In this document: positions 5,401 through 60,314 of the stretch, piece after piece
Layout of the letters: every line of letters begins with the position of its first letter
How positions within the stretch are numbered: the stretch's first letter is position 1
From: Candidatus Kapaibacterium sp.
GTDB lineage: Bacteria > Bacteroidota > Ignavibacteria > Kapaibacteriales > UBA2268
Length of the DNA stretch: 64,000 bases
Direction: 5' to 3'
Assembly: GCA_963664875.1 (NCBI GenBank)
Contig: OY761611.1
Location: forward strand, 1,760,958-1,824,957
Notes under the pieces: generated by a model
What the model was told of the DNA's origin: nothing
The model's database searches: none
Seen by the model: only the letters and a program-made list of their open reading frames with translations
Translations under genes and position numbers: made by a program

Positions 5401-6655
5401 CGCAAATAGTGGGACTTTGGCAGATACTTTGGAGTATAGTGATAATAGTATTGCAGGATTTTCGAATACTTTAAATGATAATCTTATCATTCTTCCAAAT
5501 ACTGATACTACTATCACAATTACATTTGACCCGACACAAACTCAAGGCTTGGGCAATAAATCATACAAAATTACCTTAAGAAGTGAAGTCTGCGATTTTG
5601 AATTTACACATACATCATCGGCTGATATTATAGCTCCAAGAGTTTCATTTTTACCTACAACAGTCAATCTGGGACAGGTTTGGAAAGATTTCTCCAAGGA
5701 TACGGTAATAGTGATTTTTAACAACTCACAAGTAGAAAGAACCATAAGTCATATAGAGTTTATGCCGGAAGTACCGGGATTAGAATTTGATTTTGACCTG
5801 CCTAAAGCAATCCCTGTAGGACTCACAGATACAATATATATCAACTTCAAAGCCACAGAGAAAGGCAACTTCTCAACTAAGCTATTTATTGAAGATAGGT
5901 CTGTATGTATTGATTCTACTTATTTGGACTTTGTTGTTTCTGTGCCTGATGAATATTACAAAGTAGATTTAAGAACCAATAATTACATTTTCGATATTCA
6001 CGAAAAAGGAACCTTAGAAGTATTTCTCGACAATCCTGTTTTCAAATTTAATCCCGAAAATATTACTCTTGACCTGAATTATGATATTAATCTATTTAAT
6101 CCTGAAAAAGCATATCTGCACAACAAAGGAGTGAAAACTGAAATCGAATTTCAGCCCATTTCCAATGGTGTAAGTATCACAAGCAATAGTGTAAGCATAG
6201 ACAGCTTATTCACAGAAGCAGGACTCATACTTTCGGTAGAAGGCAAACCTCTTGCCTCTTTCCCACAATCCAGTGGACTTTTGATTTCTGAAGTTCATTT
6301 TGGTACGAATAAACCTTTTGATTTGGAAACGAAAAATGGTAGCATACAGGTTGAAGGTTACTGCGAAGCTGTGATAAACGATGGTCTAATGATGCTACCA
6401 AATATGCAGGCAAGGCTCATAAACAGCATAAACTCAGATAATATTGTTTTAGAATTGGAAAGCGATTTGCCTCAACTGGCAGATATTTCAATAATAGATT
6501 TGAGTGGCAGTGAAACTAAAGCTAAAATATTCGTAGATAAGAAAGCAGAATATCAGATTAGCACTGCCACTTTCTCTCAGGGAGTATATTTCATTGTGTT
6601 AAAAACAGAATGGGGCAAGCGGGTCGTAACTTCAAAATTTTTAATTTTGAAATAA
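2441..6655 (+). CDS. Large (1404 aa) T9SS-secreted surface protein with an N-terminal BNR/Ycf48-like beta-propeller, multiple Ig-like repeats and a T9SS C-terminal sorting domain
   Basis: There is a signal peptide. BNR-like repeat motifs recur: TDRGKTWRGV, SEDGGINWTDI, TDGGNSWTQ, SYDGGRNWEV, STNGGATWTD, DDAGQSWKE. A long series of roughly 100 aa beta-rich repeats follows. The C-terminus ...ATFSQGVYFIVLKTEWGKRVVTSKFLILK has the Por-secretion-tail pattern. Confidence 0.8.
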   Translation: MKYIYTLLIISFLSFSALQADYWEEVTDITPSSFIDSYWLDIYFLPSNLNYGWVCGRDARVLRTTDRGKTWRGVTLPSTEHLESIHFTTQNIGYVSGVDGIWKSEDGGINWTDITPSDTVSYWGCYFWDSNTGVVVGDGCSLYHQYFWHTTDGGNSWTQFEGNQENSGLTDALIVNPNTEAYAISSGRLWISYDGGRNWEVKDTTGTTVWHEEITKFSNSFLIPTSGTTCSGGGSVGGMRFSTNGGATWTDRSAPRGPMYGTFLINQAKGWACGLYGQVLYTDDAGQSWKEMSCGLDNSHLDDIRFLSETEGWVVGQGLYRLGKNTYEVSEDPVIFPDMCLPGYKDHTIYISNKSFESNIVSLNIIGLDKDDFTLMMPKTTINMASCDDIPVVIRFEPNTLGEKNAILHCEFTGVVTRDIPLNGFALEPSLIMDSTTIVINPAYCGLMNSRYIELGSLTKKDTIDSYNKKNGSNDIKILSSMPLGVTVGSTFAVEATPKDTGWVEAQYLLHLKPCENDTVITVRAYGVSPIINAPLQIQQVLACTNKGEILIPISNTGNTELYLPNLDFIEDNANFKFKGTKSKKSFPLSIAQGSSDTLIVELLPQDFGIHEETLYIYNNDSTKVRGNKNPFIIELRYEYSTPLPEISTEKIDFGRICLGESQLQSFKFFNKGSIELTLTNILAELNLFGIDSEKYSNRTIHPLDSLEIDINFLATEIGKKYDTLKIVTNPCEDTLFVVLTSQVETAAIRATPEDVLLNLQTGESEEASLNLKSYSTIDLNITNISLVPENPDLLVQFADTFPLELKSGKSLDLLYSIIASKDLSYSGSLCIETDGFCDADTCIPFTIESFSGKIELSANDINFGYFTCEPQTITKSITITNSSDYADTLTKITINPTGDFAITNLPSLPLLMKSGDELTLDISYVIQNEGKFSAELLISSYLMQGRDIKVPLDIEFRTPKISVSALSADFGTKERCDIATSFSFSIANSGTLADTLEYSDNSIAGFSNTLNDNLIILPNTDTTITITFDPTQTQGLGNKSYKITLRSEVCDFEFTHTSSADIIAPRVSFLPTTVNLGQVWKDFSKDTVIVIFNNSQVERTISHIEFMPEVPGLEFDFDLPKAIPVGLTDTIYINFKATEKGNFSTKLFIEDRSVCIDSTYLDFVVSVPDEYYKVDLRTNNYIFDIHEKGTLEVFLDNPVFKFNPENITLDLNYDINLFNPEKAYLHNKGVKTEIEFQPISNGVSITSNSVSIDSLFTEAGLILSVEGKPLASFPQSSGLLISEVHFGTNKPFDLETKNGSIQVEGYCEAVINDGLMMLPNMQARLINSINSDNIVLELESDLPQLADISIIDLSGSETKAKIFVDKKAEYQISTATFSQGVYFIVLKTEWGKRVVTSKFLILK

Positions 6656-8411: not shown

Positions 8412-9839
8412 TTATAACCAAACATCCGGATTTTTCAAATATTCGTTGATTGATTCAGCTGCTGTTCTGCCTGCTCCCATCGCTAGGATTACGGTTGCAC
8501 CACCTGTAACAATATCACCACCGGCAAATATGCCTTTTTTGTTAGTTCGCATTGTTTTTTCGTCAACTAAGATATTGCCCCATTTGTTTACATCCAAATC
8601 AGGTGTTGATTGGCTTATAATTGGGTTGGAACCATTGCCGATTGCTACCACTGCAACCTGAACTTCAATTTCTTCGATAGCTCCTTCGATTGGAACCGGT
8701 CTTCTTCTGCCTGAGGCATCAGGTTCTCCTAGTTCCATTTTCTGCAGCTTCATAGATTGCAACCAACCTTTATCATTTCCGATTAGTTCAGTTGGATTGT
8801 GAAGCAGCAAGAACTCTACACCTTCTTCTTTGGCATGATGTATCTCTTCCACACGAGCCGGCATCTCAGCTTCAGTTCTGCGATATATAATCATGGCTCT
8901 TTTTGCACCAAGACGAAGTGAAGTCCTCACCGCATCCATAGCAGTATTACCACCGCCAAAAACTGCAACTGTTTTACCTTTTATGTCAAACATTGGAGTG
9001 TCGTTGTTAGGGAAATCGTAAGCTTTCATTAGGTTTACACGAGTAAGGTATTCATTAGATGAATATACACCGTTCAAATGCTCACCCGGGATATTAAGAA
9101 AGTAAGGCAATCCTGCACCGACACCAATGAATGACGCATCAAAACGAAGCATAAGCTCCTCTAATGTTTCAGTCAAACCAACCACATAGTTAGTTTCAAA
9201 TTTCACACCGAGGGTCTTTAGATTTTCTACTTCTGCTTGCACTATTTCTTTTGGCAGACGAAACTCTGGGATACCATACATCAAAACGCCGCCGATTGCG
9301 TGCAATGCTTCAAATACAGTAACTTCATGCCCCATTTGGATTAAATCGCCGGCACAGCTCAAGCCTGCAGGGCCGCCACCTATAATGGCAACTTTTTTGC
9401 CTGTCTTATTTTTTATTTCAGGAAGCTCTATTTTGACATTATTTCTCTGCCAATCTGAGGCAAATCTTTCCAAGTATCCAATTGCAACCGGAGTGCCTTT
9501 TTTGCCGAGAATACATACTTTTTCGCATTGCTCTTCCTGTGGACAAACACGACCGCAAACTGCAGGAAGTGCGTTATCTTCTTTCAATATTTCTGCAGCT
9601 CTATTAAAATTACCCAGAGCTATTTGCTCTATAAATTGAGGGATTTTAACATTAACCGGACATCCGTCAACGCATAGAGGATTTTTACATTGGATACATC
9701 TGTTTGCTTCTTCGATAGCAGTTTCCGGTGCATAACCCAAATTTACTTCTTGAAAATTTTTATTTCTTACATTTGGATCCTGCTCAGGCATCTTATGTCT
9801 TGGAATAGCCATTCTTTCTTTTTTGGTCAATTCAGCCAT
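8412..9839 (-). CDS. nfnB: NADPH-dependent glutamate synthase small-subunit-like (GltD/SudA family) iron-sulfur flavoprotein, probably NfnB
   Basis: Two Cys clusters are present: CIQCKNPLCVDGCP and CGRVCPQEEQCEKVC. A dinucleotide-binding motif KVAIIGGGPAGLSCAGDL and a second Rossmann motif TVAVFGGGNTAMD follow. The gene overlaps the upstream PyrK-like gene by 1 nt. Confidence 0.8.
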   Translation of the reverse strand: MAELTKKERMAIPRHKMPEQDPNVRNKNFQEVNLGYAPETAIEEANRCIQCKNPLCVDGCPVNVKIPQFIEQIALGNFNRAAEILKEDNALPAVCGRVCPQEEQCEKVCILGKKGTPVAIGYLERFASDWQRNNVKIELPEIKNKTGKKVAIIGGGPAGLSCAGDLIQMGHEVTVFEALHAIGGVLMYGIPEFRLPKEIVQAEVENLKTLGVKFETNYVVGLTETLEELMLRFDASFIGVGAGLPYFLNIPGEHLNGVYSSNEYLTRVNLMKAYDFPNNDTPMFDIKGKTVAVFGGGNTAMDAVRTSLRLGAKRAMIIYRRTEAEMPARVEEIHHAKEEGVEFLLLHNPTELIGNDKGWLQSMKLQKMELGEPDASGRRRPVPIEGAIEEIEVQVAVVAIGNGSNPIISQSTPDLDVNKWGNILVDEKTMRTNKKGIFAGGDIVTGGATVILAMGAGRTAAESINEYLKNPDVWL

Positions 9840-10702
9840 TACTTTTTCTCCTCTAAGCCTGCATTAAACATCTTGTCCATATTACATTCGTGTTCTTCTT
9901 TTGAAACGGTTTCCTGTTCTTGGTACATGAAGTTTCTGTTTCTTAAAATATCAAAATCTACTTCATGCGCATCAAACTCAGGGCCATCAACACAGACAAA
10001 TACTGTTTTACCGCCGACAGTTGCACGACATCCGCCGCACATTCCCGTACCGTCAACCATAACAGGATTCAAACTTACCACGGTTTTAATGCCATAAGGA
10101 CGAGTGAGATCAGCAATAGCTCTCATCATCGGGATAGGACCTATAGCAAGCACAAAGTCAATCTTCCTGCCTTCGTCAATCAATTCCTGCAACTTCTGAG
10201 TTACAAAGCCATGGAAACCATAAGAACCGTCGTCAGTTGTAGGATAGACCTCATCAGAGACTTCTTTCATCTCATTTTCTAAAATAACATGTTCTTGAGA
10301 TCTGCCACCTATAATACTGATTACGTGATTACCTGCTTCTTTTAGTGCTTTAGCAGTTGGGAAGGCAATTGCAGTACCCACGCCTCCACCAATAGAAACA
10401 GCAGTCCCGAAGTTTTCAATGTGTGATGCTTTGCCGAGTGGACCGACTAAATCCTGGATATAGTCTCCTGCTTCGAGATTATTAAGCATCTTTGTGGTTT
10501 TACCCACACCTTGAACGATAATTGTTATGGTGCCGTCATTTGTATTCGAATCAGCTATAGTTAGCGGTATTCTTTCACCGTTTTCGTGAACTCTAAGTAT
10601 GATAAACTGTCCTGCTTTACGCTTTTCAGCAATTTTTGGAGCTTCAATTCTGAAAAGCTTTATCTCAGGGCCTATAAATCTGGCTTCAACTATTTTGTTC
10701 AT
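9839..10702 (-). CDS. nfnA: Ferredoxin-NADP+ reductase-like subunit (PyrK/SudB family), probably NfnA
   Basis: The 287 aa protein has the FAD/NAD-binding fold of the PyrK-like family (RVHENGERIPLTIAD, GGGVGTAIAF). The C-terminal Cys cluster CGGCRATVGGKTVFVC fits a 2Fe-2S site. It is paired with, and overlaps, the GltD-like gene. Confidence 0.8.
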   Translation of the reverse strand: MNKIVEARFIGPEIKLFRIEAPKIAEKRKAGQFIILRVHENGERIPLTIADSNTNDGTITIIVQGVGKTTKMLNNLEAGDYIQDLVGPLGKASHIENFGTAVSIGGGVGTAIAFPTAKALKEAGNHVISIIGGRSQEHVILENEMKEVSDEVYPTTDDGSYGFHGFVTQKLQELIDEGRKIDFVLAIGPIPMMRAIADLTRPYGIKTVVSLNPVMVDGTGMCGGCRATVGGKTVFVCVDGPEFDAHEVDFDILRNRNFMYQEQETVSKEEHECNMDKMFNAGLEEKK

Positions 10703-49103: not shown

Positions 49104-50555
49104 TTGCGTAAAGCAATTTGCTTTCTCTTTACTTTTTATTTTCTTGGGAACATGATGTACGATAATATTATTTCTGAGTCGCAGATATTTGAGCTTCTTA
49201 GTCATGCTCAAAAACCTGATAATAAGCAAATAGATGATATTTTGATTAAAGCTAAAGAGCTTAAAGGGCTTTCAAAAGAAGATGTAGCCGTCCTTCTTAA
49301 TATAGAAGATAATGATACACTCCAAAAGCTATATGAGACTGCACTATACATAAAAGAAGAAATTTACGGCAATCGCCTCGTGCTTTTTGCTCCGCTTTAT
49401 GTCTCTAATCATTGTGCAAATAACTGCTTATATTGCGGTTTCAGAGCTGCTAATAAAGAAATACACCGTCACACCTTGACGTTGGATCAGGTAAAAGAGG
49501 AAACTCTTGAGCTATTGAAGCAGGGACATAAGCGCGCTCTTATGCTTATTGGCGAAGGACACAAAAGCTGTACGTTTGACTACTTCCTCGAAACAATCGA
49601 CGCTGTTTATAGTGTTAGAGATGACAAAGGAAGCAGCATCAGACGTGTCAATGTGGAAATTGCTCCGCTCACTGACGAAGAATTCCAAAAACTTAGAAAT
49701 GTAAAAATTGGTACTTATACTGTTTTTCAGGAAACTTACCACAGAGAAACATATAAACAAATGCACCCGAGCGGCAAAAAGTCTGATTATGACTGGCGTA
49801 TCGAAGTTATGCACCGTGCATTGAAAAACGGAATGCACGATGTCGGAATCGGCGCTTTGTTCGGATTGTATGACTATAAATTTGAAGTAATGGCTCTTAT
49901 CCAACATGCTGAATCTTTGGATAAGGAATTTAACGTTGGCCCTCACACGATCTCTATCCCGAGGATCAAACCAGCTTCCAATGCACCGGCAGCATTGCAT
50001 ATACCTCATCAGGTTAGCGACAGAGATTTTAAAAAGCTCGTCGCTGTGCTTAGGCTTGCTGTCCCTTATACCGGTATGATTTTATCAACTCGCGAACCAA
50101 TGTCTCTTAGAACTGAGCTATTCGATTTGGGTATATCTCAAATAAGTGCCGGCTCTAAGACTAATCCGGGTGGATATAAGCAGGCGATGAACGAGCACGA
50201 AGAAGATGCTTCTCAGTTCTGCCTAAACGATGCACGCACTTCCGGTGAAATTATACATGATGTAATTAAAATGGGGCACGTTCCTTCTTTCTGTACCGGT
50301 TGTTACCGCAAAGAAAGAGTGGGAGCTGACTTTATGGACTTGGCAAAACCGGGACTTATCAAGTTGCACTGCCTTCCAAACGGGCTAACTACGCTAAAAG
50401 AATATCTCGAAGATTACGCAACTCCTGAAACTAAGGCTCTAGGCGAAGCTCTGATAGAAAAGGAAATAATGAATATTCCTGCTGAAAACGTTAGAGAAAG
50501 AACTCGGGAATTCTTAAGCAAAATCGAAAAAGGCGAAAGAGATTTATACTTCTAA
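49104..50555 (+). CDS. hydG: [FeFe]-hydrogenase maturase HydG (radical SAM, tyrosine-lyase-like)
   Basis: The radical-SAM motif CANNCLYCGF is present. The C-terminal auxiliary cluster motif CTGCYRKE-x22-C (FCTGCYRKERVGADFMDLAKPGLIKLHC) is present. The protein is about 470 aa and sits next to hydE. Confidence 0.8.
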   Translation: MRKAICFLFTFYFLGNMMYDNIISESQIFELLSHAQKPDNKQIDDILIKAKELKGLSKEDVAVLLNIEDNDTLQKLYETALYIKEEIYGNRLVLFAPLYVSNHCANNCLYCGFRAANKEIHRHTLTLDQVKEETLELLKQGHKRALMLIGEGHKSCTFDYFLETIDAVYSVRDDKGSSIRRVNVEIAPLTDEEFQKLRNVKIGTYTVFQETYHRETYKQMHPSGKKSDYDWRIEVMHRALKNGMHDVGIGALFGLYDYKFEVMALIQHAESLDKEFNVGPHTISIPRIKPASNAPAALHIPHQVSDRDFKKLVAVLRLAVPYTGMILSTREPMSLRTELFDLGISQISAGSKTNPGGYKQAMNEHEEDASQFCLNDARTSGEIIHDVIKMGHVPSFCTGCYRKERVGADFMDLAKPGLIKLHCLPNGLTTLKEYLEDYATPETKALGEALIEKEIMNIPAENVRERTREFLSKIEKGERDLYF

Positions 50556-50564
50556 GGAAAAAAA

Positions 50565-51659
50565 TTGAATAATATAGATAGCATCCTCTTACAAGACAAT
50601 TTTACAAAAGAAGATATTGTCTCTCTGCTCGCTATTGAGTCAGACGAGGACATGGAAAAACTACGCAAGCGAGCCAACGACGTGCTAATGGAACACGTCG
50701 GCGAAAAGATATTTCTGCGTGGTTTAGTCGAGTTTTCCAATATCTGTGCTTTAGATTGCAACTATTGCGGCATCAGAAAAAGCAACAAAAATGTACACCG
50801 CTACCAGCTCACTAAAGATGAAGTAGTCAGTGCAGCTAAGTGGTGCGCCGATAAAGGATACGGCTCTTTTGTGCTACAGTCAGGCGAAAGAAGTGATAGC
50901 CATTTTATAGATTACGTATGCGATTTGCTTCGAGGCGTAAAAGATGCTTCCAAATCGGAACAACTACCGAACGGGCTTGGCATAACTCTCTCCATTGGCG
51001 AGCAAACGAAAGAGGACTATCAAAAGTTATATGATGCCGGAGCTCACCGCTTCCTTCTTCGCATCGAATCTACAAATAGAGAACTTTTCGATAAAATACA
51101 CCCGCACTCTCAGTCTTTTGAAAGTCGCATCAAAGCGATGCAAAATCTGCGTGAAGTAGGTTTTCAGGTGGGAACAGGCGTTATGATTGGTCTGCCCGGA
51201 CAAACTTTGGATGACCTCGCAGGAGACATTCTTTTCTTCAAGGAGCAGGATGTTGACATGATTGGCATGGGGCCTTACCTTGTGCATAGAGATACACCTA
51301 TGGCAGATTACTATGCAACATGGCTCGAACGCAAAGACGAAATAACAAAACTCGCTCTGAAGATGATAGCCGTTACAAGGATTGTGCTGAAAGATGTAAA
51401 TATTGCCTCTACAACTGCACTTGAGACAATTCATCCGAGTGGAAAAGAAAAAGGACTGATGCACGGAGCAAATGTAATCATGCCTATGCTCACTCCCGAA
51501 AACATACGCGCAAACTACAAACTCTACGAGGGCAAGCCAACAGGCGACAACTTCAAATCGGAACAAGGCGGAGACTCCCCTATTCTAAAAATTGCCGGAA
51601 GAGAAGTAAACTACGGCTCATGGGGCGATTCCAAGCATTTTGAGAGAAAGAGGAAGTAA
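50565..51659 (+). CDS. hydE: [FeFe]-hydrogenase maturase HydE (radical SAM, BioB-like)
   Basis: The motif CALDCNYCGIRKSN is present. The 364 aa protein lies immediately downstream of hydG. Confidence 0.75.
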   Translation: MNNIDSILLQDNFTKEDIVSLLAIESDEDMEKLRKRANDVLMEHVGEKIFLRGLVEFSNICALDCNYCGIRKSNKNVHRYQLTKDEVVSAAKWCADKGYGSFVLQSGERSDSHFIDYVCDLLRGVKDASKSEQLPNGLGITLSIGEQTKEDYQKLYDAGAHRFLLRIESTNRELFDKIHPHSQSFESRIKAMQNLREVGFQVGTGVMIGLPGQTLDDLAGDILFFKEQDVDMIGMGPYLVHRDTPMADYYATWLERKDEITKLALKMIAVTRIVLKDVNIASTTALETIHPSGKEKGLMHGANVIMPMLTPENIRANYKLYEGKPTGDNFKSEQGGDSPILKIAGREVNYGSWGDSKHFERKRK

Positions 51660-51730: not shown

Positions 51731-51764
51731 AAAAAAAAGACTCTATGAATTATATCATAGAGTC
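51731..51764 (-). terminator. Rho-independent terminator (minus strand) after the small-membrane-ORF cluster
   Basis: The 10 bp stem GACTCTATGA...TCATAGAGTC is preceded on the plus strand by A8, which gives T8 on the minus strand. Confidence 0.65.
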
Positions 51765-51815
51765 CAATAATAGGTAAGGAAAAAATATTTTCCCAAACAG
51801 TACTTGTTATAATTG

Positions 51816-52181
51816 CTAAGTTTCTTTGTTTCGAGACATATTCCCAAAAAACGCTAAAAAAGTTCCATATGATTGAACAATCATGCTTGGTGACATCAGT
51901 ATTTGGATAATATCGAAATCATTTGCACTATTTAGAAAAAAAAGATACAAAGAAATAAGAAGCAATATTTCCGATGCATACCTCATCATAATATATACTT
52001 TTTTTTCTTTAAAATTGAAAAACAATCTGTTAATTAAGACAATATTGCTAAACAATAATATTAAATGTGCTTCTGAGTTTGCATACTTATCAAAAATAAA
52101 TATACTATACAGTAAGAACAACTCTATACTTGCTAAAACAATGAAACCGGTCACCAATAGTGCAGTATTTCTTTTTTTCAT
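51816..52181 (-). CDS. Hypothetical small membrane protein (121 aa)
   Basis: About three hydrophobic helices are predicted. A minus-strand terminator follows about 55 nt downstream. The region is AT-rich, so confidence is low. Confidence 0.3.
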   Translation of the reverse strand: MKKRNTALLVTGFIVLASIELFLLYSIFIFDKYANSEAHLILLFSNIVLINRLFFNFKEKKVYIMMRYASEILLLISLYLFFLNSANDFDIIQILMSPSMIVQSYGTFLAFFGNMSRNKET

Positions 52182-52247
52182 AATATTCTACTTCTTTTTA
52201 ATCACCGAAAAAACGAGCAAAACTGTTATATATTAAGGTAGCCGTGT

Positions 52248-52484: not shown

Positions 52485-52778
52485 ATAGAATACAGCATAG
52501 AGTGTAAGTTTTATGCTCTATTAGCTACTATTTACCTATACTACCTGCTAAAAGCTACCTGAGAAGCCTGACCGTCTAAGTGCTGGATGCCAAGGCTGTT
52601 AAATCTAAAGTTTTGCCTTTTAAGGAGTATTTGGAGTTAAATGTTTTTATTATTTATGACTATGCTGATAGTTTGTTTCAATTATAGTAATCAAAGGGCT
52701 CTGTTTATCATTGTCGAAGAACATGATATTACATAATCAGAAAAAGTTCTACAAATACAGTTCAGAATCAATAGACTA

Positions 52779-52967
52779 TCAAACAAAAAGCCAAAACAAA
52801 ACAACTACTAATGCCACATAGCAACTGAAAAAAATATACTTTTTATTTCTGTTGCCAAAGAATATATTCGATACTTTGGCATATAAAACAGGATTGTTCT
52901 TTTCTGTTTTATGTTTCAGAATAAAAATCGAAAATAATATTCCAAAATACAATAAAAACAATACCAT
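52779..52967 (-). CDS. Hypothetical small membrane protein (62 aa)
   Basis: It consists of two hydrophobic segments. It has the same orientation as, and lies downstream of, the paralogous lipoprotein genes. Confidence 0.2.
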   Translation of the reverse strand: MVLFLLYFGILFSIFILKHKTEKNNPVLYAKVSNIFFGNRNKKYIFFSCYVALVVVLFWLFV

Positions 52968-53040
52968 AGGATTTACCCTAAAATTATTTTTTGAATTCTA
53001 TGTAGGTTTAGGTCGAAAACCTAAACCTACGTATGTTTGA

Positions 53041-53940
53041 TTAATCCCACCAACCGAAAAGATATTTACCTGCTGCGGCAACTCCACAAACAACTGCATT
53101 GGTCACCACTACAGCAGAACTACCAGAGGCAGCTGCAGCACCTGGCAAAGCTCCGATTCCTCCTGTACAAACACCACCTGCAATTGCTCCAGCAGCATCA
53201 GCTAATACAGTTCCAACTGCACAAGCAGCAACAGCAGCTTCTGTTTTTCCAATCTTTTTAGAAACTACATTTTGTTCTTTTGCTCCTAACAACTTGCTTA
53301 CGTTAAATTCATAAGAATGTTTCACGATAGCAATAGTTTTAAGAGCCATAGTTTCTTCTTCATCCCATGTCTCTTGTAAAATCTTACTTTCTACTGCTTG
53401 AATTCGATTAGCAATACTTGCCAAAGTAAACATCTCCTCTCCTTCAATAATATTTCGTAATTCATCAAAAATGTAAACTACCATATTAGCATCTTTCTCA
53501 GAAGTACAGCCATATATGGTCTCTCTTAATGAGGATGTCAGAAAATAGCCTGTGTTTAGTTCGTTTACTGCTGTTTTAAATCCGTTAGATATTAGGAAAT
53601 CATCCACTTCTTGTTCAGATACGTTTAGGGACTGATTATTAAGAGCTCCAGTGATAATAGTCAACACTTTGCTATTAAAGTTGTCATCTTCATAGTTAGA
53701 AGTACTAGTAAACTCACCTGATTGGTAGTAAGGCAATAATTGCTGAAAAACTTCTTCCATAGCTTTATTATGTATTTCGCCTAAGTAATCATAGGGATTT
53801 ACTAACTGTACTTGGACACTATTTGTTATAGTATTGTTTGACATTGCAGGAACAACAGATTCATTGTCTTCTGTACAACTCATCAAACCAAAGATTGAAA
53901 GCGATAATGCCATTAAGGCAAGGATAATTTTTGTTTTCAT
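53041..53940 (-). CDS. Secreted lipoprotein with a C-terminal Gly/Ala-rich glycine-zipper tail (bacteriocin/microcin-like)
   Basis: The N-terminus MKTKIILALMALSLSIFGLMSC has a lipobox. The C-terminus is AVAACAVGTVLADAAGAIAGGVCTGGIGALPGAAAASGSSAVVVTNAVVCGVAAAGKYLFGWWD. Confidence 0.6.
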   Translation of the reverse strand: MKTKIILALMALSLSIFGLMSCTEDNESVVPAMSNNTITNSVQVQLVNPYDYLGEIHNKAMEEVFQQLLPYYQSGEFTSTSNYEDDNFNSKVLTIITGALNNQSLNVSEQEVDDFLISNGFKTAVNELNTGYFLTSSLRETIYGCTSEKDANMVVYIFDELRNIIEGEEMFTLASIANRIQAVESKILQETWDEEETMALKTIAIVKHSYEFNVSKLLGAKEQNVVSKKIGKTEAAVAACAVGTVLADAAGAIAGGVCTGGIGALPGAAAASGSSAVVVTNAVVCGVAAAGKYLFGWWD

Positions 53941-53975
53941 TTTGATATCTGTAATTAGTTTTTACATTAAGTAAT

Positions 53976-54102
53976 TGAATTACTATTGCTTTTAAGCGAA
54001 AAAGCAATAATTTACAGTGCATGATTTCGTGTAAGTCAAACATTTCGAAATCACGTGCGTTTTGTAGCCGATTACTCCCCAGTATCGGCTCTTTTTTTGC
54101 CG
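53976..54102 (+). repeat. Conserved upstream element, copy 1: three hairpins, the last being an intrinsic terminator on the plus strand
   Basis: Copy 1 is nearly identical to 55217-55344. The first hairpin is TATTGCTTTT...AAAAGCAATA. The second is TGATTTCG...CGAAATCA and contains the palindrome ATTTCGAAAT. The third is AGCCGATTACT-CCCC-AGTATCGGCT followed by T7. Confidence 0.7.
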
Positions 54103-54314
54103 TTTGTGTAATTTAGTTATAGTTTTTAGAACACTTTACTCCTGTTTCTTATTGAATATGATATTCCTATTTCGTAAAACTGATTTTTGAAGTTAAATGT
54201 TCCAAAATAGAACAACCATTTTGCAAAGAAAATTATTACAAGTATACTTTATAATACAAAATTAGCGAGTTAACTTTTATGTATTCATCCTATTACATAT
54301 TAGTATGCTATATT

Positions 54315-55181
54315 TTATTTTCCCCAGTTGCCTAAGTCAACTTCTCCCAACCAAACCTCAGCTATATCAGGCTCGAGTTTAACAAGCCCCATTTTAATTA
54401 ACACTTCAAGCCATGAACCAGGTAAAACAACTACACCTTTCAAGCTAATAAAACCATCAGGCATAAACTTGATATTCCCATTGCCAAACCAGAACAAACT
54501 CCCCAAAAACATTTGCATAGTCGGCTTAGTAAAGATTGGCAATTCACCTTCATAGTCCGGTTTACAGCCGGTTTGGACAAACCAAACATCTTTATCTTCA
54601 TCTATAAGATTATTCCAATATACTGCATTAGCAAGACTTAGTTCACAAGCATTAAGTAAGATACTTTTTTTCGAGGACAACAATCCAAAATCACTATTAA
54701 TTGCTTTTTTTATTTCAGTGATTTTAGAATCCATCTCAGCTATATCATTAACATTTGCAATTATATCTGCGATTTGTCTGATATAATTTTTCACTAAATC
54801 AGAAATATTCGCATTATTATAATAATCCTGTAATGAGATCGATTGTATCATTGTGTAATTTTCTACAATCCAATCGTTGAATTCTGTCGGAATTGAATTC
54901 ATATCTGAAGCTACAAATATGTTGCTCTTGTACATATTGCTAAAGCTCTGATAATCACATAATCCAATGAATTGATCTTTTAAACTAAAAAAATTATGCC
55001 AAGTTTGATTAAGCTGGTAAGAAACCTCAGTATTCAATATGCTAAGTTTTGACACATTTGAACTGCTAAATTCGCTTGAATTATCTGATGGCATTGTGTT
55101 AGAAGCTTGTTCCGTACAACTCATAAGACCAAAGATAGAAATCGATAATGCCATAATAGCAAGAATAATTTTTGTTTTCAT
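54315..55181 (-). CDS. Secreted lipoprotein paralog
   Basis: The N-terminus MKTKIILAIMALSISIFGLMSC matches the 53041..53940 gene at 19 of the first 22 residues. The rest of the protein has diverged. Confidence 0.6.
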   Translation of the reverse strand: MKTKIILAIMALSISIFGLMSCTEQASNTMPSDNSSEFSSSNVSKLSILNTEVSYQLNQTWHNFFSLKDQFIGLCDYQSFSNMYKSNIFVASDMNSIPTEFNDWIVENYTMIQSISLQDYYNNANISDLVKNYIRQIADIIANVNDIAEMDSKITEIKKAINSDFGLLSSKKSILLNACELSLANAVYWNNLIDEDKDVWFVQTGCKPDYEGELPIFTKPTMQMFLGSLFWFGNGNIKFMPDGFISLKGVVVLPGSWLEVLIKMGLVKLEPDIAEVWLGEVDLGNWGK

Positions 55182-55216
55182 ATTTTTAACTGTAATATGA
55201 TTCTACATTATTTTAT

Positions 55217-55344
55217 TGAATTCCTATTGCTTCTTTTCAAAAAAAGCAATATATTACAGTGCATGATTTCGTGTAAGTCAAACATTTCGAAATCACGTGC
55301 GTTTTGTAGCCGATTACTCCCCAGTATCGGCTCTTTTTTTGCCG
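55217..55344 (+). repeat. Conserved upstream element, copy 2
   Basis: Copy 2 is about 95% identical to 53976-54102 over roughly 125 bp. It includes the same hairpin and T-run terminator. Confidence 0.7.
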
Positions 55345-55455
55345 AAATTATTTTTTACTTTTTGTCAAGAAATATATCACCTATAAATCAATGAATAAAC
55401 TATTTTCGTCTGTTATTATAGTCAAATATCAACAGCACTAATTTAGCAATTTCTC

Positions 55456-55733: not shown

Positions 55734-57596
55734 CTATTGCACTATTACTTTTACATTTTTTCCGTTGAGGATTAAATTGTAAACTCCGGCGGAAAGTGCT
55801 CTTAAATCAAGCTGTTTCCCGTCCGCTTTTACTGCAGAAGTAACATCATTACCTAAAATATCAACTACTTTATATGTACTTGGTAGCTCAGTATTGATTG
55901 TAATAAAGTCAGCTGTAGGATTAGGGAATACTGAGATTTCTTCTTCGTTTGTTTCTTCTACTGAAACATTAGGATCTAAGATAATATTATCTATAAGAGT
56001 CATACCGCCCATTGCTCCATAAACTGAGAATTTGAATTGAGCGTGTTCGGACATATATTTAGAATCAAGATCAATTCTTTCAGTTCTCCAGTTTTCCTCT
56101 GCCGGTTTTACATTGTAGATATAAGTCTGTTCAAATATATCTTTGAATGGCTCATCATAAGTCGCAAGCTCTTCTCTTGTTTTTCTGTATATCTCTTCGA
56201 AAGTTTTACCACCGTCTATTGAGATTTCTACTACAAGAGTATCAGAGTAAATATATTCTGTTCCCTGAATATTATAATGGAAGTAGTTATAAGCAACATC
56301 AAAAGATAAATATGGAGCCATACCATCAATATTAAAGAATGGAGAAATCAGCTCATCTTTGAAGCCTTCGTAGTTAAATACCATAAGTGTAGGATTGCTG
56401 TAAAATGCCATAGCATAGTTGTCTCCATCTTGGTAAGGTTGCCAAGTTTCTAGTTGAGGGGATTCTTCTAAAAACCAATCATTTTCTAATTCGTTACCCG
56501 GAGCAGGATTGAATACATAAGGCAATTTATGAGGTTCCTCTGTGTAATAAATTGTATGTACAGTTTCTTCCTCTTCTTCTTTTGCTACGCCATTTACTTC
56601 CAGTACTTTGAAAGAAATATCATTTAGTCCCGGCTCTAAAGCACCTGCTTCCACTTCGAGCGATTCAAAAACGTACTGTTCAGCTTCGCCTTCCCAAGTA
56701 TATTCGTATGAATTAGTACCATTAGAAACTTCAAATTTGCAAGAAGTGATAGAGTTGTCTCCGGCACCTCTAAATCTGATATTAAACTTAGGTGTTTCTT
56801 CCAAAGTGTTGTTCGGTGAATCTATATCCATGATTTCTACTATGTCGTTGCCCATATTGTCCCCGTTAAAAGCAACCTGTGCAACCGGGAACGCATGATA
56901 AACAATAGAGTGTCCCATATCAGGAATCACAAAGTGACGCATAATTGCATTGTATTTTTCTAAACTGTCAACTACCATCTGAATTGGTTCTAAATAAAAA
57001 ATATCATCAGCACCATTTGTAATAATCATAGGAACCTTTCTTGCATTTTCATAACGAATGCGTTCGAAAATGCCTAAATCAGCATATAAATTCATTGCAT
57101 CTTTCGGCCCTTGCACTGCAGGAGTATTTAGTATTAGAGTATGAAATTTTTCCGGGTACTGCAAACCATAGCACATAGCCGAGCGCGCACCAAGAGAAAA
57201 GCCTTCAAGAAATATTCTGTCTTCAGCTACATTGTAGTTTGCTTTAACATAGTCGATACACTTGTCAACTATAGTAATGTCTTCACGAGGCTCGTAGAAG
57301 TCTCTGTTTTGGTCATCGCCACCATCAGGAATAACATAAATATAGTTATTATACATTGGGTCTAATTCCGCAACAGATTTAGCAAAAGCTGCCATATTCG
57401 CAGAGTTGTCACCCAAACCATGTAGCATAATCATTACATCATAAGCTTTTGTACCATCGTAATCCAAAGGTACATAAAGCGAAACAGGTCTGTCTTCATC
57501 CAAATGAGGAAGTGTGATATTAATTAAGCCGGTTTCCTGCGAAAAAGCAGTGCCAAAGCAAATAAATAAAGCGAGTAGAGTAGATAAGTATTTCAA
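55734..57596 (-). CDS. T9SS-secreted alpha/beta-hydrolase (esterase/lipase or depolymerase-like) with a C-terminal sorting domain
   Basis: An HGLGDNS oxyanion-hole-like segment is present. The nucleophile elbow is GFSLGA (GxSxG). The C-terminus ...GVYNLILNGKNVKVIVQ is a T9SS C-terminal domain. The start codon is TTG, with a GGGAGA SD. Confidence 0.75.
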   Translation of the reverse strand: MKYLSTLLALFICFGTAFSQETGLINITLPHLDEDRPVSLYVPLDYDGTKAYDVMIMLHGLGDNSANMAAFAKSVAELDPMYNNYIYVIPDGGDDQNRDFYEPREDITIVDKCIDYVKANYNVAEDRIFLEGFSLGARSAMCYGLQYPEKFHTLILNTPAVQGPKDAMNLYADLGIFERIRYENARKVPMIITNGADDIFYLEPIQMVVDSLEKYNAIMRHFVIPDMGHSIVYHAFPVAQVAFNGDNMGNDIVEIMDIDSPNNTLEETPKFNIRFRGAGDNSITSCKFEVSNGTNSYEYTWEGEAEQYVFESLEVEAGALEPGLNDISFKVLEVNGVAKEEEEETVHTIYYTEEPHKLPYVFNPAPGNELENDWFLEESPQLETWQPYQDGDNYAMAFYSNPTLMVFNYEGFKDELISPFFNIDGMAPYLSFDVAYNYFHYNIQGTEYIYSDTLVVEISIDGGKTFEEIYRKTREELATYDEPFKDIFEQTYIYNVKPAEENWRTERIDLDSKYMSEHAQFKFSVYGAMGGMTLIDNIILDPNVSVEETNEEEISVFPNPTADFITINTELPSTYKVVDILGNDVTSAVKADGKQLDLRALSAGVYNLILNGKNVKVIVQ

Positions 57597-57869: not shown

Positions 57870-60314
57870 TTACCTCCTATTAATATTAATTATTTTTGAA
57901 ATCTTTTTATTATTCATCTTAATTTCTAATATGTATTCTCCCATAGAAAGATTGTATGGTAACACAATCGTCGCTGCATCGGAAAACCACATATCTTGGT
58001 GCAATACTAAATTCCCGGTAATATCATACAATAAAACCGTTGCGTTACCTCTATAATCTGACATATTCCTAATATGAACATAATTGACAGCAGGATTTGG
58101 AAAAAGTTGGAATTCTGATTCTACACTACCTTCCATTTCCTCAATTACAGATAAAACATTACCAATATCTAATATAGATATGTTTTCTATTCTTCTAAAC
58201 GAATTATTATCTCCATTTGGAACCGTATTTGCAGAAAACAAATAAACAGATTTTTTGTCCTTAGACAGAATTGGATATATATAACTGTGTTTTAATTTTG
58301 GAATAGCCTTACTTAGATCAATATTTTGTATTATCTGTTCATTATCTACATCGAGTATCAACATGTTTTCTGTGTCAAAATTACAAACAATCATATTGGA
58401 AGACTGTGGTACAGATATTATACTAGCACTTTCGTTATCACTTGAGCCTAATTGGTTATAAAACAAACTCGAAAAACTATCTTCATTAATGTGCAACTTT
58501 ATACAAATGTCATAGTCATATGATAATATATACAACAAAGAATCATTGTCAGGTATATCATAAGAAGCAAACTGATTATATATCTCATTTGTCTGAAAAA
58601 AAACTCCACCCTTGAAAGGAATTACTTTTTCATCTATCAGTGAATACTTCGCAAATGAAAACAAATTATTATCATCATACTCTTTATCGATGTCTTTTTT
58701 TGCTGTCACCAGTATAAGCTCATAGTTATCGATTAATAGTAAGTCAGATATAACAGTATTGGTTGAATACTGTTGAACAACTTTATCTAATGATATATCA
58801 TAAATAATAATATCACCAGAATATGTTGTAAGAATAATATTTTCAGAGTTTTTGTAGAAGTGAATAGAGCTAATATCTTCGTCATATTGTATAGTCTGTT
58901 TCAAAGACATATCTGATGCATTTAATATCCTAATTGTATTATATATTGATAACTCTTCATCTCTTACCAACATAGCAACATATTGATCATCTATAGAAAT
59001 ATCAAACTTGCCTTCATTCATATTATCACAATAATAAAAATCTTCAATTATAGAAGTAGATGGATCATATTTACATACATAACTAGTATTATAAGAATAA
59101 TCATAGCATCTAGTACTGATGCACATATCATCAGATTTATTATAACGTTTTATATTGTTAACATTTCCTGGCAAAGTGAGTAATTTTGTCTTAGAGTCAG
59201 AATAGTCTGATAATAATAAAAATTGATCTGCTATTGAAATAACTCTGGAATTACCTATATAATTCCCTGTCGCCAATATAGGAGAACTATAGCTCAACAG
59301 AGGTTGCTCATATTTCGGAGATGATATATCATTCAAATCATAAGTACAAATCTTTGCATTATTCATAGCTGTAAAAGTATTATATTTTTTATTTATATTA
59401 CATTGATAGCTAGAATTAAAATCTAATGTTTGCCGATTTTTTAAGTTTGAATCTAAAACATTCAGACTATAACAACTATTATTAGCATTATAGCCTACAA
59501 ATATGATTTTATCTCCTGATTCAAACAATCTACCATAAGCTCCATAAACAATATTGCCAGTAATATCTCGCATACTATAATTAATAGTCTCATCATACTC
59601 ACCAGACTCGGTCAATGCAATCAAACGCCCATTAGTACTTTGATCATAAACTAAACAAAGCAATTTATTATTAAAGTAACAAACATCAAGAGGACCACCT
59701 TTGTACTTTTCAGTCACATTTACAACCCAATTTATTTGCATTGTTTCTATATTCATAGATAATATTTCTCCATTACCATAAATGCAGAAATAGTCTGTAT
59801 CCGAAATAGAAGTTCGAATTGGTATTTTCACATTATCCAATTTTACAATATCAGTAAATTCTTTATTTATGATATCATACTTTATAATGTAACTAGCTTT
59901 ATGTTTTCCCCACTCTCCTTGGTAGCCATTTATTAGAATATATCTATCATCTCTACTAATAATAGGGCACTGTGGAAAAAACCCAACAGTATCAATATTA
60001 TCATTCGTAATTACATCAGCTAACTCACAATCTGAATTTCTATATAGCATTAACATCCCTGATCCTTGTGGTTCTGATTCTACCTCAGAACCATTTGCAA
60101 TCAAAGAGAAAATTCCACTCTCACTGGTGTATATCCTATTTAGATGAACGAGATCCCCAGCTTGATATCTAAAATATTTTGTCCCGGCTAAAGAACTGCC
60201 TTGCAATTGAGTCGTGAAACTAGCCAATAAAATCGCCCAAATAAAAAACAATATATTAATTGACAACAACATTCTAAAAACTTTCATGAATCTCTCCAAA
60301 ATTTGGTGGTTCAA
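57870..60314 (-). CDS. T9SS-secreted hypothetical protein (814 aa, Asn/Tyr/Ile-rich, probably beta-propeller-like)
   Basis: The signal peptide MKVFRMLLSINILFFIWAILLA starts from an internal Met. The C-terminus ...GEYILEIKMNNKKISKIININRR is a T9SS C-terminal domain. Confidence 0.6.
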   Translation of the reverse strand: MNHQILERFMKVFRMLLSINILFFIWAILLASFTTQLQGSSLAGTKYFRYQAGDLVHLNRIYTSESGIFSLIANGSEVESEPQGSGMLMLYRNSDCELADVITNDNIDTVGFFPQCPIISRDDRYILINGYQGEWGKHKASYIIKYDIINKEFTDIVKLDNVKIPIRTSISDTDYFCIYGNGEILSMNIETMQINWVVNVTEKYKGGPLDVCYFNNKLLCLVYDQSTNGRLIALTESGEYDETINYSMRDITGNIVYGAYGRLFESGDKIIFVGYNANNSCYSLNVLDSNLKNRQTLDFNSSYQCNINKKYNTFTAMNNAKICTYDLNDISSPKYEQPLLSYSSPILATGNYIGNSRVISIADQFLLLSDYSDSKTKLLTLPGNVNNIKRYNKSDDMCISTRCYDYSYNTSYVCKYDPSTSIIEDFYYCDNMNEGKFDISIDDQYVAMLVRDEELSIYNTIRILNASDMSLKQTIQYDEDISSIHFYKNSENIILTTYSGDIIIYDISLDKVVQQYSTNTVISDLLLIDNYELILVTAKKDIDKEYDDNNLFSFAKYSLIDEKVIPFKGGVFFQTNEIYNQFASYDIPDNDSLLYILSYDYDICIKLHINEDSFSSLFYNQLGSSDNESASIISVPQSSNMIVCNFDTENMLILDVDNEQIIQNIDLSKAIPKLKHSYIYPILSKDKKSVYLFSANTVPNGDNNSFRRIENISILDIGNVLSVIEEMEGSVESEFQLFPNPAVNYVHIRNMSDYRGNATVLLYDITGNLVLHQDMWFSDAATIVLPYNLSMGEYILEIKMNNKKISKIININRR

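Follow-up and report, generated by a model that had tools for sequence, protein, structure and literature searches.

We examined a 64,000-nucleotide stretch of contig OY761611.1 from Candidatus Kapaibacterium sp. (assembly GCA_963664875.1, positions 1,760,958 to 1,824,957 of the forward strand; hereafter the window), and in it a gene for a 299-aa lipoprotein (P0001) that ends in a tail rich in Gly and Ala. A preliminary description had taken this tail for a bacteriocin-like peptide fused to a lipoprotein. We found that this tail is conserved, as the C-terminal module of a rare and hitherto undescribed family of Bacteroidota lipoproteins; judged by sequence, the lipoprotein gene and a small membrane-protein gene that follows it appear to be a previously undescribed pair, at a locus bearing the hallmarks of polymorphic toxins. 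Metagenome-assembled genomes of Candidatus Kapaibacterium (Bacteroidota) are the nearest genomes, and comparison loci and proteins are given below by L and P numbers, respectively. The gene and its parts, in positions of the window, are as follows.

53041..53940, minus strand: gene for the 299-aa lipoprotein (P0001) of the C-terminal Gly-zipper family, from its open reading frame (ORF) and the HMMER family search
53875..53940, minus strand: signal peptide and lipobox, residues 1-22, LMS followed by C, read from the sequence
53236..53874, minus strand: N-domain, residues 23-235, all-helical, with the motifs NPYDYLGEIHN and KHSYEF
53044..53235, minus strand: Gly/Ala-zipper tail, residues 236-299, from composition, motif counts and AlphaFold2 (AF2)

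The tail sequence quoted in the preliminary description was found exactly as written at the C-terminal end of the 299-aa lipoprotein, although two of the accompanying numbers need correction: the tail contains three cysteines (C240, C258 and C285) rather than four, and the mature body before it comprises 213 aa rather than about 230. Its 64 residues include 19 Ala, 12 Gly and 10 Val (48% Gly + Ala) and make up two marginally hydrophobic helices, with ALPG at their junction and an aromatic cluster, YLFGWWD, at the end. At 49% Gly + Ala, the tail is the top 65-residue segment among the ORF stretches of at least 150 aa within the window (mean 12.6%, standard deviation 5.5), and its composition is therefore far from chance. 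The GxxxG and AxxxA motifs previously attributed to it are present, with three strict GxxxG, two AxxxA and 14 [GA]xxx[GA] matches, but their i/i+4 periodicity does not rise above composition, because 12% of the shuffled tails give the same zipper count. The AF2 model of the whole protein is all-helical with a predicted local distance difference test (pLDDT) score of 74; the helix at residues 234-259 scores approximately 80, and the last 28 residues (272-299) fall below 50.

A tail of this kind might be an ordinary C-terminal transmembrane (TM) anchor, or the protein might have some unrelated function and the tail be no more than low-complexity Ala/Gly sequence devoid of meaning, and the Kyte–Doolittle peaks (1.82 and 1.65, near the usual TM threshold) would suit such an explanation, as would a zipper periodicity no greater than composition provides. 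However, the Wimley–White octanol free energy is unfavourable for a monomeric TM helix (at least +0.1 kcal/mol for the tail, versus −8.9 for the signal peptide), a lipid anchor is already present in the protein, and Gly, Asp and Pro positions, together with the terminal aromatics, are conserved across approximately 40 divergent family members, a conservation that largely refutes this explanation and leaves it very improbable. The tail is poorly hydrophobic and does not look like an ordinary housekeeping stop-transfer anchor. Such an anchor, conserved in housekeeping orthologues, had been named at the outset as one outcome that would refute the bacteriocin-like reading; the energy values speak against the anchor.

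That family was barely visible to a word-indexed search with the lipoprotein, which returned a single relative, P0002; the tail alone returned nothing, its self-match too being lost to the composition filters. An exhaustive HMMER (phmmer) scan of 1.84 billion representatives at E ≤ 1e-3 gave 48 clusters, so that the family is rare and patchy; within one genus it is multi-copy and mosaic. Nearly all members are 250-320 aa long, with a lipobox followed by acidic residues. In the family alignment (A3) they share an N-terminal NPYDxxGxxHN motif, a central E..IL…W…E..AL..IA.KHS..FW motif and, in the C-terminal 55-65 residues, a zipper that opens with xADxxGxxxG and closes with Trp or Phe, often with GP or ALP forming a turn midway. 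Of the conserved residues, G255 is invariant and N48, P49, G54, H57, N58, E184, S209 and D248 nearly so; the window protein carries all nine. Most members have the same kind of Gly-zipper tail, and the view of the tail as an odd fusion onto a lipoprotein was thus mistaken: it is a conserved C-terminal part of the whole family. The N-domain is common to P0002 (hhalign probability 98.8%, residues 1-241), whose tail is Trp-rich and different, and the comparison of these two proteins suggests, by analogy, the conserved-N/variable-C layout of polymorphic toxins, of which the SitA lipoproteins are an example (PMC8546572).

The signal peptide and lipobox of the 299-aa protein, MKTKIILALMALSLSIFGLMS followed by C22, lead directly into TEDNES, and TEDNE resembles the acidic lipoprotein export signal of Bacteroidota, for which consensus sequences of K-(D/E)2 and SDDDD have been reported (PMC5080379). 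At least two acidic residues occur at positions +2 to +6 in 22 of the 26 members whose lipobox the pattern search located. These acidic residues fit the export signal and point to display of the lipoprotein on the cell surface or on vesicles. As a separate observation on the family, the gene for P0007 (L028, approximately 1225-1400) seems to shift frame at a CCCCACCCACCACCAC run that separates the signal peptide/lipobox from the body, which would mean a pseudogene, a tract prone to slippage or an error of assembly.

In order to place the family among known proteins, we compared it with profile collections. Neither the full 299-aa protein, nor the tail alone, nor any of the 42 aligned family members gave an above-threshold match in Pfam or NCBIfam, and at E ≤ 10 neither collection matched the tail, to a bacteriocin, microcin or colicin profile or to any other. 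Ten family tails scanned at the same cut-off gave no bacteriocin match (best, Bacteriocin_IIc, PF10439, E = 5.4), and no bacteriocin profile was found at E ≤ 0.1 in 42 full-length members. The most frequent profile was DUF6861 (PF21724), sub-threshold in seven of the 42 members (best E = 5.7e-4; gathering threshold 28 bits) and also the best Pfam value for the window protein (E = 0.054, sub-threshold). Gly-zipper_Omp, OmpA and YMGG profiles matched one or two of the 42 members at E of approximately 5e-4, below their cut-offs of 25-29 bits, and other sub-threshold similarities within the family were to YiaD, OsmB and TraT. The window protein itself matched no SlyB/Pcp-type profile (Rick_17kDa_Anti, Gly-zipper_Omp/OmpA/YMGG), nothing in PADLOC or PHROGs, and no colicin pore-forming domain by sequence or fold. 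A profile search of the PDB gave only matches driven by the signal peptide or by low complexity, such as the prion protein. It also listed 28li_A, an ‘uncharacterized conserved protein’ of 265 aa that is itself a lipoprotein, as a weak match (E = 0.0095) over the signal peptide and a G.HHN region; the N-domain may have a remote structural relative here, unless the signal peptide alone accounts for the match.

The proposed kinship of the tail with class II bacteriocins, colicin V-type microcins and colicins accordingly fails as a claim of homology, because there is no similarity to any bacteriocin-type profile, the very result that the preliminary description had named as telling against it. 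The bacteriocin-like label is wrong as family membership, while the functional direction to which it pointed is plausible. A bacteriocin or microcin precursor, from which the approximately 64-aa tail would be cleaved and released as a class II or colicin V-like peptide, has in its favour a composition resembling that of class IIb/IIc peptides and the Cdz proteins (see below), and a Lys-rich linker, VVSKKIGK, before the tail, basic linkers being found in many family members. We nevertheless consider it very improbable: besides the missing profile match, the 299-aa precursor has a signal-peptidase-II lipobox instead of a double-glycine leader, and no ABC exporter, C39 peptidase or type I secretion genes lie among the called neighbours of its gene. 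These neighbours comprise the radical-SAM genes hydE and hydG together with genes for an esterase and two substrates of type IX secretion, and related loci have similar neighbours. Moreover, alignment A3 showed no conserved cleavage motif at the junction, and the N-domain, with its invariant motifs, is as conserved as the tail, which argues for a joint function of the two.

The second element of the system emerged from the surroundings of the lipoprotein genes. Twenty distinct non-window loci were available from the genome scan, the metagenome scan and exact look-ups, and in all 20 a small hydrophobic multi-pass ORF lies 3′ of the lipoprotein gene on the same strand, either overlapping the stop codon or up to 106 nt beyond it. 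Three of these ORFs run off their contigs, and the lengths of the complete ones range from 64 to 140 aa. Most of these partners belong to one alignable family (A6) of 113-135 aa, with approximately four hydrophobic helices and the motifs hINR and LLxxPS, for which neither Pfam nor NCBIfam gave a match. The type of partner changes with the lipoprotein subtype, with at least four types among the 20 loci; a ‘WIFGL’ type occurs in L001 and L033, other types in L009, L031 and L034, and a 64-aa type in L028. Mantel correlations (rho) of partner similarity were 0.49 with the N-domain and 0.35 with the tail. The immunity function that we assign to the partner is putative. At L031 we also noted, two genes 3′ of the family member, a 75-aa ORF (5538-5765) consisting of tandem MDFRGV/MSFRGV repeats.

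In the window, the place of the partner may be taken by an uncalled ORF, a weak candidate.

52779..52967, minus strand: candidate cognate partner (weak assignment), an uncalled ORF of 62 aa that has two hydrophobic segments and lies 73 nt beyond the lipoprotein stop codon

The closest relative of the window tail, P0007, is followed after 94 nt by a 64-aa ORF with two helices (2-TM), and the 62-aa ORF shares 29% identity with it in a global alignment (BLAST E = 0.15, not significant). The 62-aa ORF would be, at best, the sole cognate-partner candidate for the 299-aa lipoprotein.

A membrane-protein gene lies further downstream, 860 nt from the lipoprotein gene. The interval holds a hairpin, the 62-aa ORF, a second uncalled ORF of 78 aa and a relic of a type IX secretion system (T9SS) gene. 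The features of this side of the locus are as follows.

52999..53033, no strand assigned: hairpin of 15 bp immediately 3′ of the stop codon that ends the 299-aa gene
52568..52639, minus strand: remnant of a C-terminal sorting domain for type IX secretion (..LKGKTLDLTALASS), pointing to deletion or rearrangement in the past, from blastn and tblastx matches to L001 (11449-11520) and L004
52248..52484, minus strand: uncalled hydrophobic 78-aa ORF, ending exactly where the lipoprotein-gene relic begins
52198..52246, minus strand: 3′ relic (49 nt, blastn) of a Gly-zipper lipoprotein gene of a different, L002/P0006-like subtype
51816..52181, minus strand: four-helix membrane protein of 121 aa, putative orphan immunity protein, from the L002 alignment
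51738..51765, minus strand: intrinsic-terminator-like hairpin with a T-run, closing the locus before the convergent hydE

The 121-aa protein belongs to partner family A6, with its hINR and LLxxPS motifs, and gave no Pfam, NCBIfam, PADLOC or PHROG match; its AF2 model, from a shallow alignment, is of low confidence (pLDDT 57), and we use from it the count of four helices only. It is 54% identical to the product of a 122-aa gene situated 12 nt 3′ of the gene for P0006 at another genomic site, L002, whereas P0006 and the window lipoprotein are only 30% identical. The similarity continues at the nucleotide level, the window from 52246 to 51718 aligning with L002 6912-7441 at 74.5% identity over 541 nt (blastn), and the aligned region runs from the last 50 nt or so of the P0006 gene through the spacer and the partner gene into the 3′ flank. 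The relic so delimited reads ..ATLIYNSFARFFGD before its stop codon, compared with ..AIAIYNSFCGFFSGD before that of P0006. Between the window and L002, synonymous divergence (dS) amounts to 1.4 in the lipoprotein genes, compared with 0.33 in the partner genes. The 121-aa gene therefore represents the orphan partner of a displaced module of a different subtype, the lipoprotein gene of which has been deleted down to a 49-nt relic, and the retention of the partner after loss of its lipoprotein fits a role in immunity. Contigs with close variants of the 121-aa gene begin at the gene itself and are uninformative on what lies upstream. We had also considered the 121-aa gene as the cognate partner of the 299-aa lipoprotein, and rejected this assignment on the basis of the relic and the dS values.

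The surrounding locus is hypervariable. At the syntenic site beside hydE/hydG in L001, HydE is 88% identical to that of the window, whereas the lipoprotein (P0002) is 30% identical and has a different tail; a third relative, L033, shows yet another arrangement. The T9SS relic matches a similar relic in L001 and intact T9SS proteins of 398-427 aa in L002, L004 and L033, which indicates repeated deletions at the locus. The gene finders did not call the 78-aa ORF, for which the fetched loci offered no homolog; it may be spurious, or else a further orphan partner. A hairpin comparable to that after the 299-aa gene lies 3′ of the P0023 gene in L033.

On its 5′ side the lipoprotein gene is preceded by a conserved leader, which recurs in front of a second lipoprotein gene.

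53941..54123, minus strand: conserved 5′ leader, copy 1, with three to four hairpins, 5′ of the 299-aa gene
54315..55181, minus strand: lipoprotein of 288 aa, sharing leader and signal peptide with the 299-aa protein; the body differs and there is no Gly-zipper tail
55182..55365, minus strand: conserved 5′ leader, copy 2, 5′ of the 288-aa gene

The leader, of approximately 170 nt, forms together with the first 24 codons the direct repeats D1/D2, with 81-90% nucleotide identity between the copies, and a 47-nt core has two exact matches in the window against none expected. It is also found in L001 (approximately 9830-10000), in L002 and L004 (approximately 5830-6000) and in L033 (approximately 4835-5000), and the proteins behind it are unrelated or only distantly related. 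RNAalifold proposed 46 pairs with no covariation, because the leader is too conserved; a search of the locus against Rfam returned nothing credible, and none for the leader. Hairpin 1 and the adjoining A-run would, on the opposite strand, constitute a terminator (hairpin plus T-run), at approximately 54085-54120 and 55330-55365 of the plus strand, so that the leader might be the site of a cis-antisense RNA or might be a recombination cassette; from the sequence, a cis-antisense RNA seems possible.

The 288-aa protein, described earlier as a paralog, does lack the tail. Beyond the common leader and the first 24 residues, its likeness to the 299-aa protein is remote (21% identity), with its N-terminal half remotely similar to the family (hhalign 95%, residues 1-144) and its C-terminal part of approximately 90 residues (…WFGNGNIKFMPDGFISLKGVVVLPGSWLEV…) unlike a Gly-zipper. 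It gave no family match in Pfam, NCBIfam, PADLOC or PHROGs, and has no adjacent small membrane ORF. Another protein with the same leader and signal peptide is P0047 (L004, 6001-6267), a Cys/Gly-rich lipoprotein of 88 aa ending in GGSGGCTASGWGCDC, of which P0040 is a 211-aa relative with many Cys; these two could be another kind of secreted peptide cargo.

Two features of polymorphic toxins can thus be recognised at these loci, namely a downstream partner that varies by subtype (20 of 20 non-window loci) and an orphan 3′ fragment with its partner kept. An escort-like arrangement might be read from the N-domain common to P0002 and from the leader and signal peptide common to unrelated cargo, but most members carry tails of one kind. 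We therefore made comparisons with known systems. The CdzC and CdzD proteins of Caulobacter crescentus consist to 75% of Gly and small hydrophobic residues and are countered by CdzI, an immunity protein with three TM segments (PMC5380434). The present pair resembles this system in its Gly plus small-hydrophobic zipper, in the surface retention presumed for the putative toxin, killing by membrane insertion having been proposed in Caulobacter, and in the small, multi-pass nature of CdzI, which has no known homologs (PMC5380434). It differs in that Cdz comprises two peptides of approximately 85 aa with RTX-type leaders and dedicated type I export, whereas here a single Sec/signal-peptidase-II lipoprotein of approximately 275 aa has a large helical domain, no type I secretion genes nearby and no sequence similarity to Cdz.

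The SitA toxins of myxobacteria are also lipoproteins and need no dedicated secretion machine; they are encoded in one operon with an immunity gene (SitI), combine a conserved N-terminal ‘escort’ with a C-terminal toxic part, and occur as multiple mosaic loci per genome (PMC5562445, PMC8546572). In contrast to the membrane-active-looking hairpin found here, however, the SitA C-termini are nucleases acting in the cytoplasm, SitI is not polytopic, no sequence similarity exists, and delivery proceeds via TraAB outer-membrane exchange. TraAB exchange is not known from Bacteroidota. Pore-forming colicins (A, E1, Ia, pyocin S5 type) have immunity proteins of approximately 110-180 aa with three or four TM segments, encoded beside the toxin (Cai/Cei-type). 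Their helical domain of approximately 200 aa, with an Ala/Gly-rich hydrophobic hairpin near the C-terminus, recalls the window protein, but colicins are not lipoproteins, possess receptor-binding and translocation domains, and provided no pore-domain match. Finally, comparison can be made with Gly-zipper effectors of type VI secretion systems (T6SS) and with DUF6861 of polymorphic toxins, described as a membrane domain of the Gly-zipper kind that is joined to several toxin domains (bioRxiv 10.1101/2022.08.23.504947). DUF6861 is N-terminal and serves to translocate a separate toxin domain, and there is no T6SS context in our case. By sequence comparison, none of Cdz, SitA or the colicins is a homolog, and they would be the closest functional analogies.

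We favour the reading, to which we give a probability of roughly 0.45, that the lipoprotein is a membrane-damaging antibacterial toxin and the small membrane protein its immunity protein. This expectation is based on the invariable small membrane partner, the rarity and patchiness of the family, its mosaic copies, the hypervariable locus and the retained partner. Further support comes from the tail, which is conserved across the family, poorly hydrophobic for a stop-transfer anchor and of a composition like that of known Gly-zipper toxins such as Cdz, from the acidic residues after the lipobox, and from the N-domain in common with P0002. The family with its architecture, the gene pair, the hypervariability and the orphan relic are seen in the sequences; toxicity, immunity, surface exposure and delivery are inferred. 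The product of the first gene, a Sec/signal-peptidase-II lipoprotein, would reach the cell surface and outer-membrane vesicles by export; when mature it would consist of a helical domain of approximately 210 aa and a Gly/Ala-zipper helical hairpin of approximately 60 aa with an aromatic end. The marginally hydrophobic hairpin would pass the Sec translocon without arrest, oligomerise via its small-xxx-small faces and insert into the target membrane, the surface or the vesicle being the presumed starting point of delivery. The second gene would encode the cognate immunity protein, a small polytopic protein able to neutralise the hairpin within the membrane. In this Kapaibacterium-like genome, such modules would sit behind a constant 5′ leader and signal-peptide cassette, at a recombination hot spot beside hydE/hydG; the 299-aa gene would be the current module, and the 121-aa gene with its 49-nt relic the remnant of an earlier module of a different subtype.

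Several observations weigh against this toxin–immunity reading. No toxin, bacteriocin, colicin or immunity profile scored above threshold for any member, so that no homology leads to toxicity, and no member was found in the plasmid and phage collections. The C-terminal polymorphism is limited, because most members share the same kind of tail. The lipoprotein and its partner co-diverge as a unit, as the Mantel values indicate, so that a specific match between tail and partner is not separable from one with the N-domain, and a membrane complex of two non-toxic proteins would also be compatible with a conserved gene pair. The 299-aa gene of the window has no called gene adjoining it, and the 62-aa candidate has no significant similarity, while the dN/dS of 0.87 for the orphan partner could simply reflect decay. 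In addition, the reading supplies no route from a lipid-anchored surface protein to the membrane of its polytopic partner.

The same conservation of the tail and co-divergence of the pair would suit the main rival reading, a non-toxic envelope lipoprotein, the Gly-zipper hairpin of which embeds or oligomerises like the ‘glycine zipper 2TM’ of SlyB, Pcp, YfgH and OsmB, with the small membrane protein as a functional or structural partner, for example in envelope stress or as an adaptor. The pairing of a lipobox (LMS followed by C22 here) with a Gly-zipper helical hairpin is a well-known housekeeping one, as the papers on SlyB and YfgH record, and the only profile similarities of the family, all sub-threshold, are mainly to Gly-zipper, YiaD, OsmB and TraT profiles. 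However, no member exceeds the threshold of such a profile, and the window protein matches none of them. In SlyB the zipper hairpin is close to the lipid anchor. Here, by contrast, it occupies the very C-terminus and 213 residues separate it from the lipid-modified Cys, and proteins of the SlyB type are conserved, mostly single-gene stress proteins without an obligate partner. The explanation also has to accommodate a family that is very rare and patchy (48 clusters in 1.84 billion representatives) and multi-copy and mosaic within one genus, a locus that is hypervariable between 88%-identical flanks, and a partner gene that persists beside a deleted lipoprotein gene. It covers the lipobox, the zipper and the weak profile matches, but is less successful with the hypervariability, with the C-terminal placing of the zipper and with the orphan relic, and we rate it less likely than the toxin–immunity reading.

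Taken further, the toxin–immunity reading would describe a class of interbacterial weapon hitherto unrecognised in Bacteroidota that operates free of any dedicated secretion machine: surface or vesicle lipoproteins whose helical domain and C-terminal Gly-zipper hairpin together permeabilise the membranes of competitors, with polytopic immunity proteins, and with modules that in Kapaibacteriaceae are swapped behind a leader cassette, possibly under cis-antisense control, leaving orphan immunity genes behind. We offer this wider proposal, drawn from sequence, only tentatively, and regard it as doubtful. Antagonism in Bacteroidota is known mainly from type VI secretion, MACPF proteins and small bacteriocins. 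If the module is a toxin–immunity pair, it would add to these a lipoprotein-borne, membrane-targeting weapon independent of secretion systems, and the SitA toxins of myxobacteria and the Cdz system of Caulobacter would have a counterpart in Bacteroidota; if the pair is instead a SlyB-like envelope pair, it would be a rare, lineage-specific envelope component of modest interest. In either case two new protein families are defined, the lipoprotein and its 4-TM partner, for which Pfam and NCBIfam hold no model, and the leader cassette could be used to find variable cargo genes in Kapaibacteriaceae genomes.

The locus is bordered on one side by hydG (BATS domain) and hydE, which encode [FeFe]-hydrogenase maturases (49104-51659, plus strand) and form a conserved flank in three related genomes. 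On the other side lie two genes for large proteins with type IX secretion (Por) C-terminal tails (55734-57596 and 57870-60314, minus strand), one of which has an esterase domain. In L033 the esterase homolog is found on the other side of the lipoprotein module, which indicates that the locus has been rearranged between relatives.

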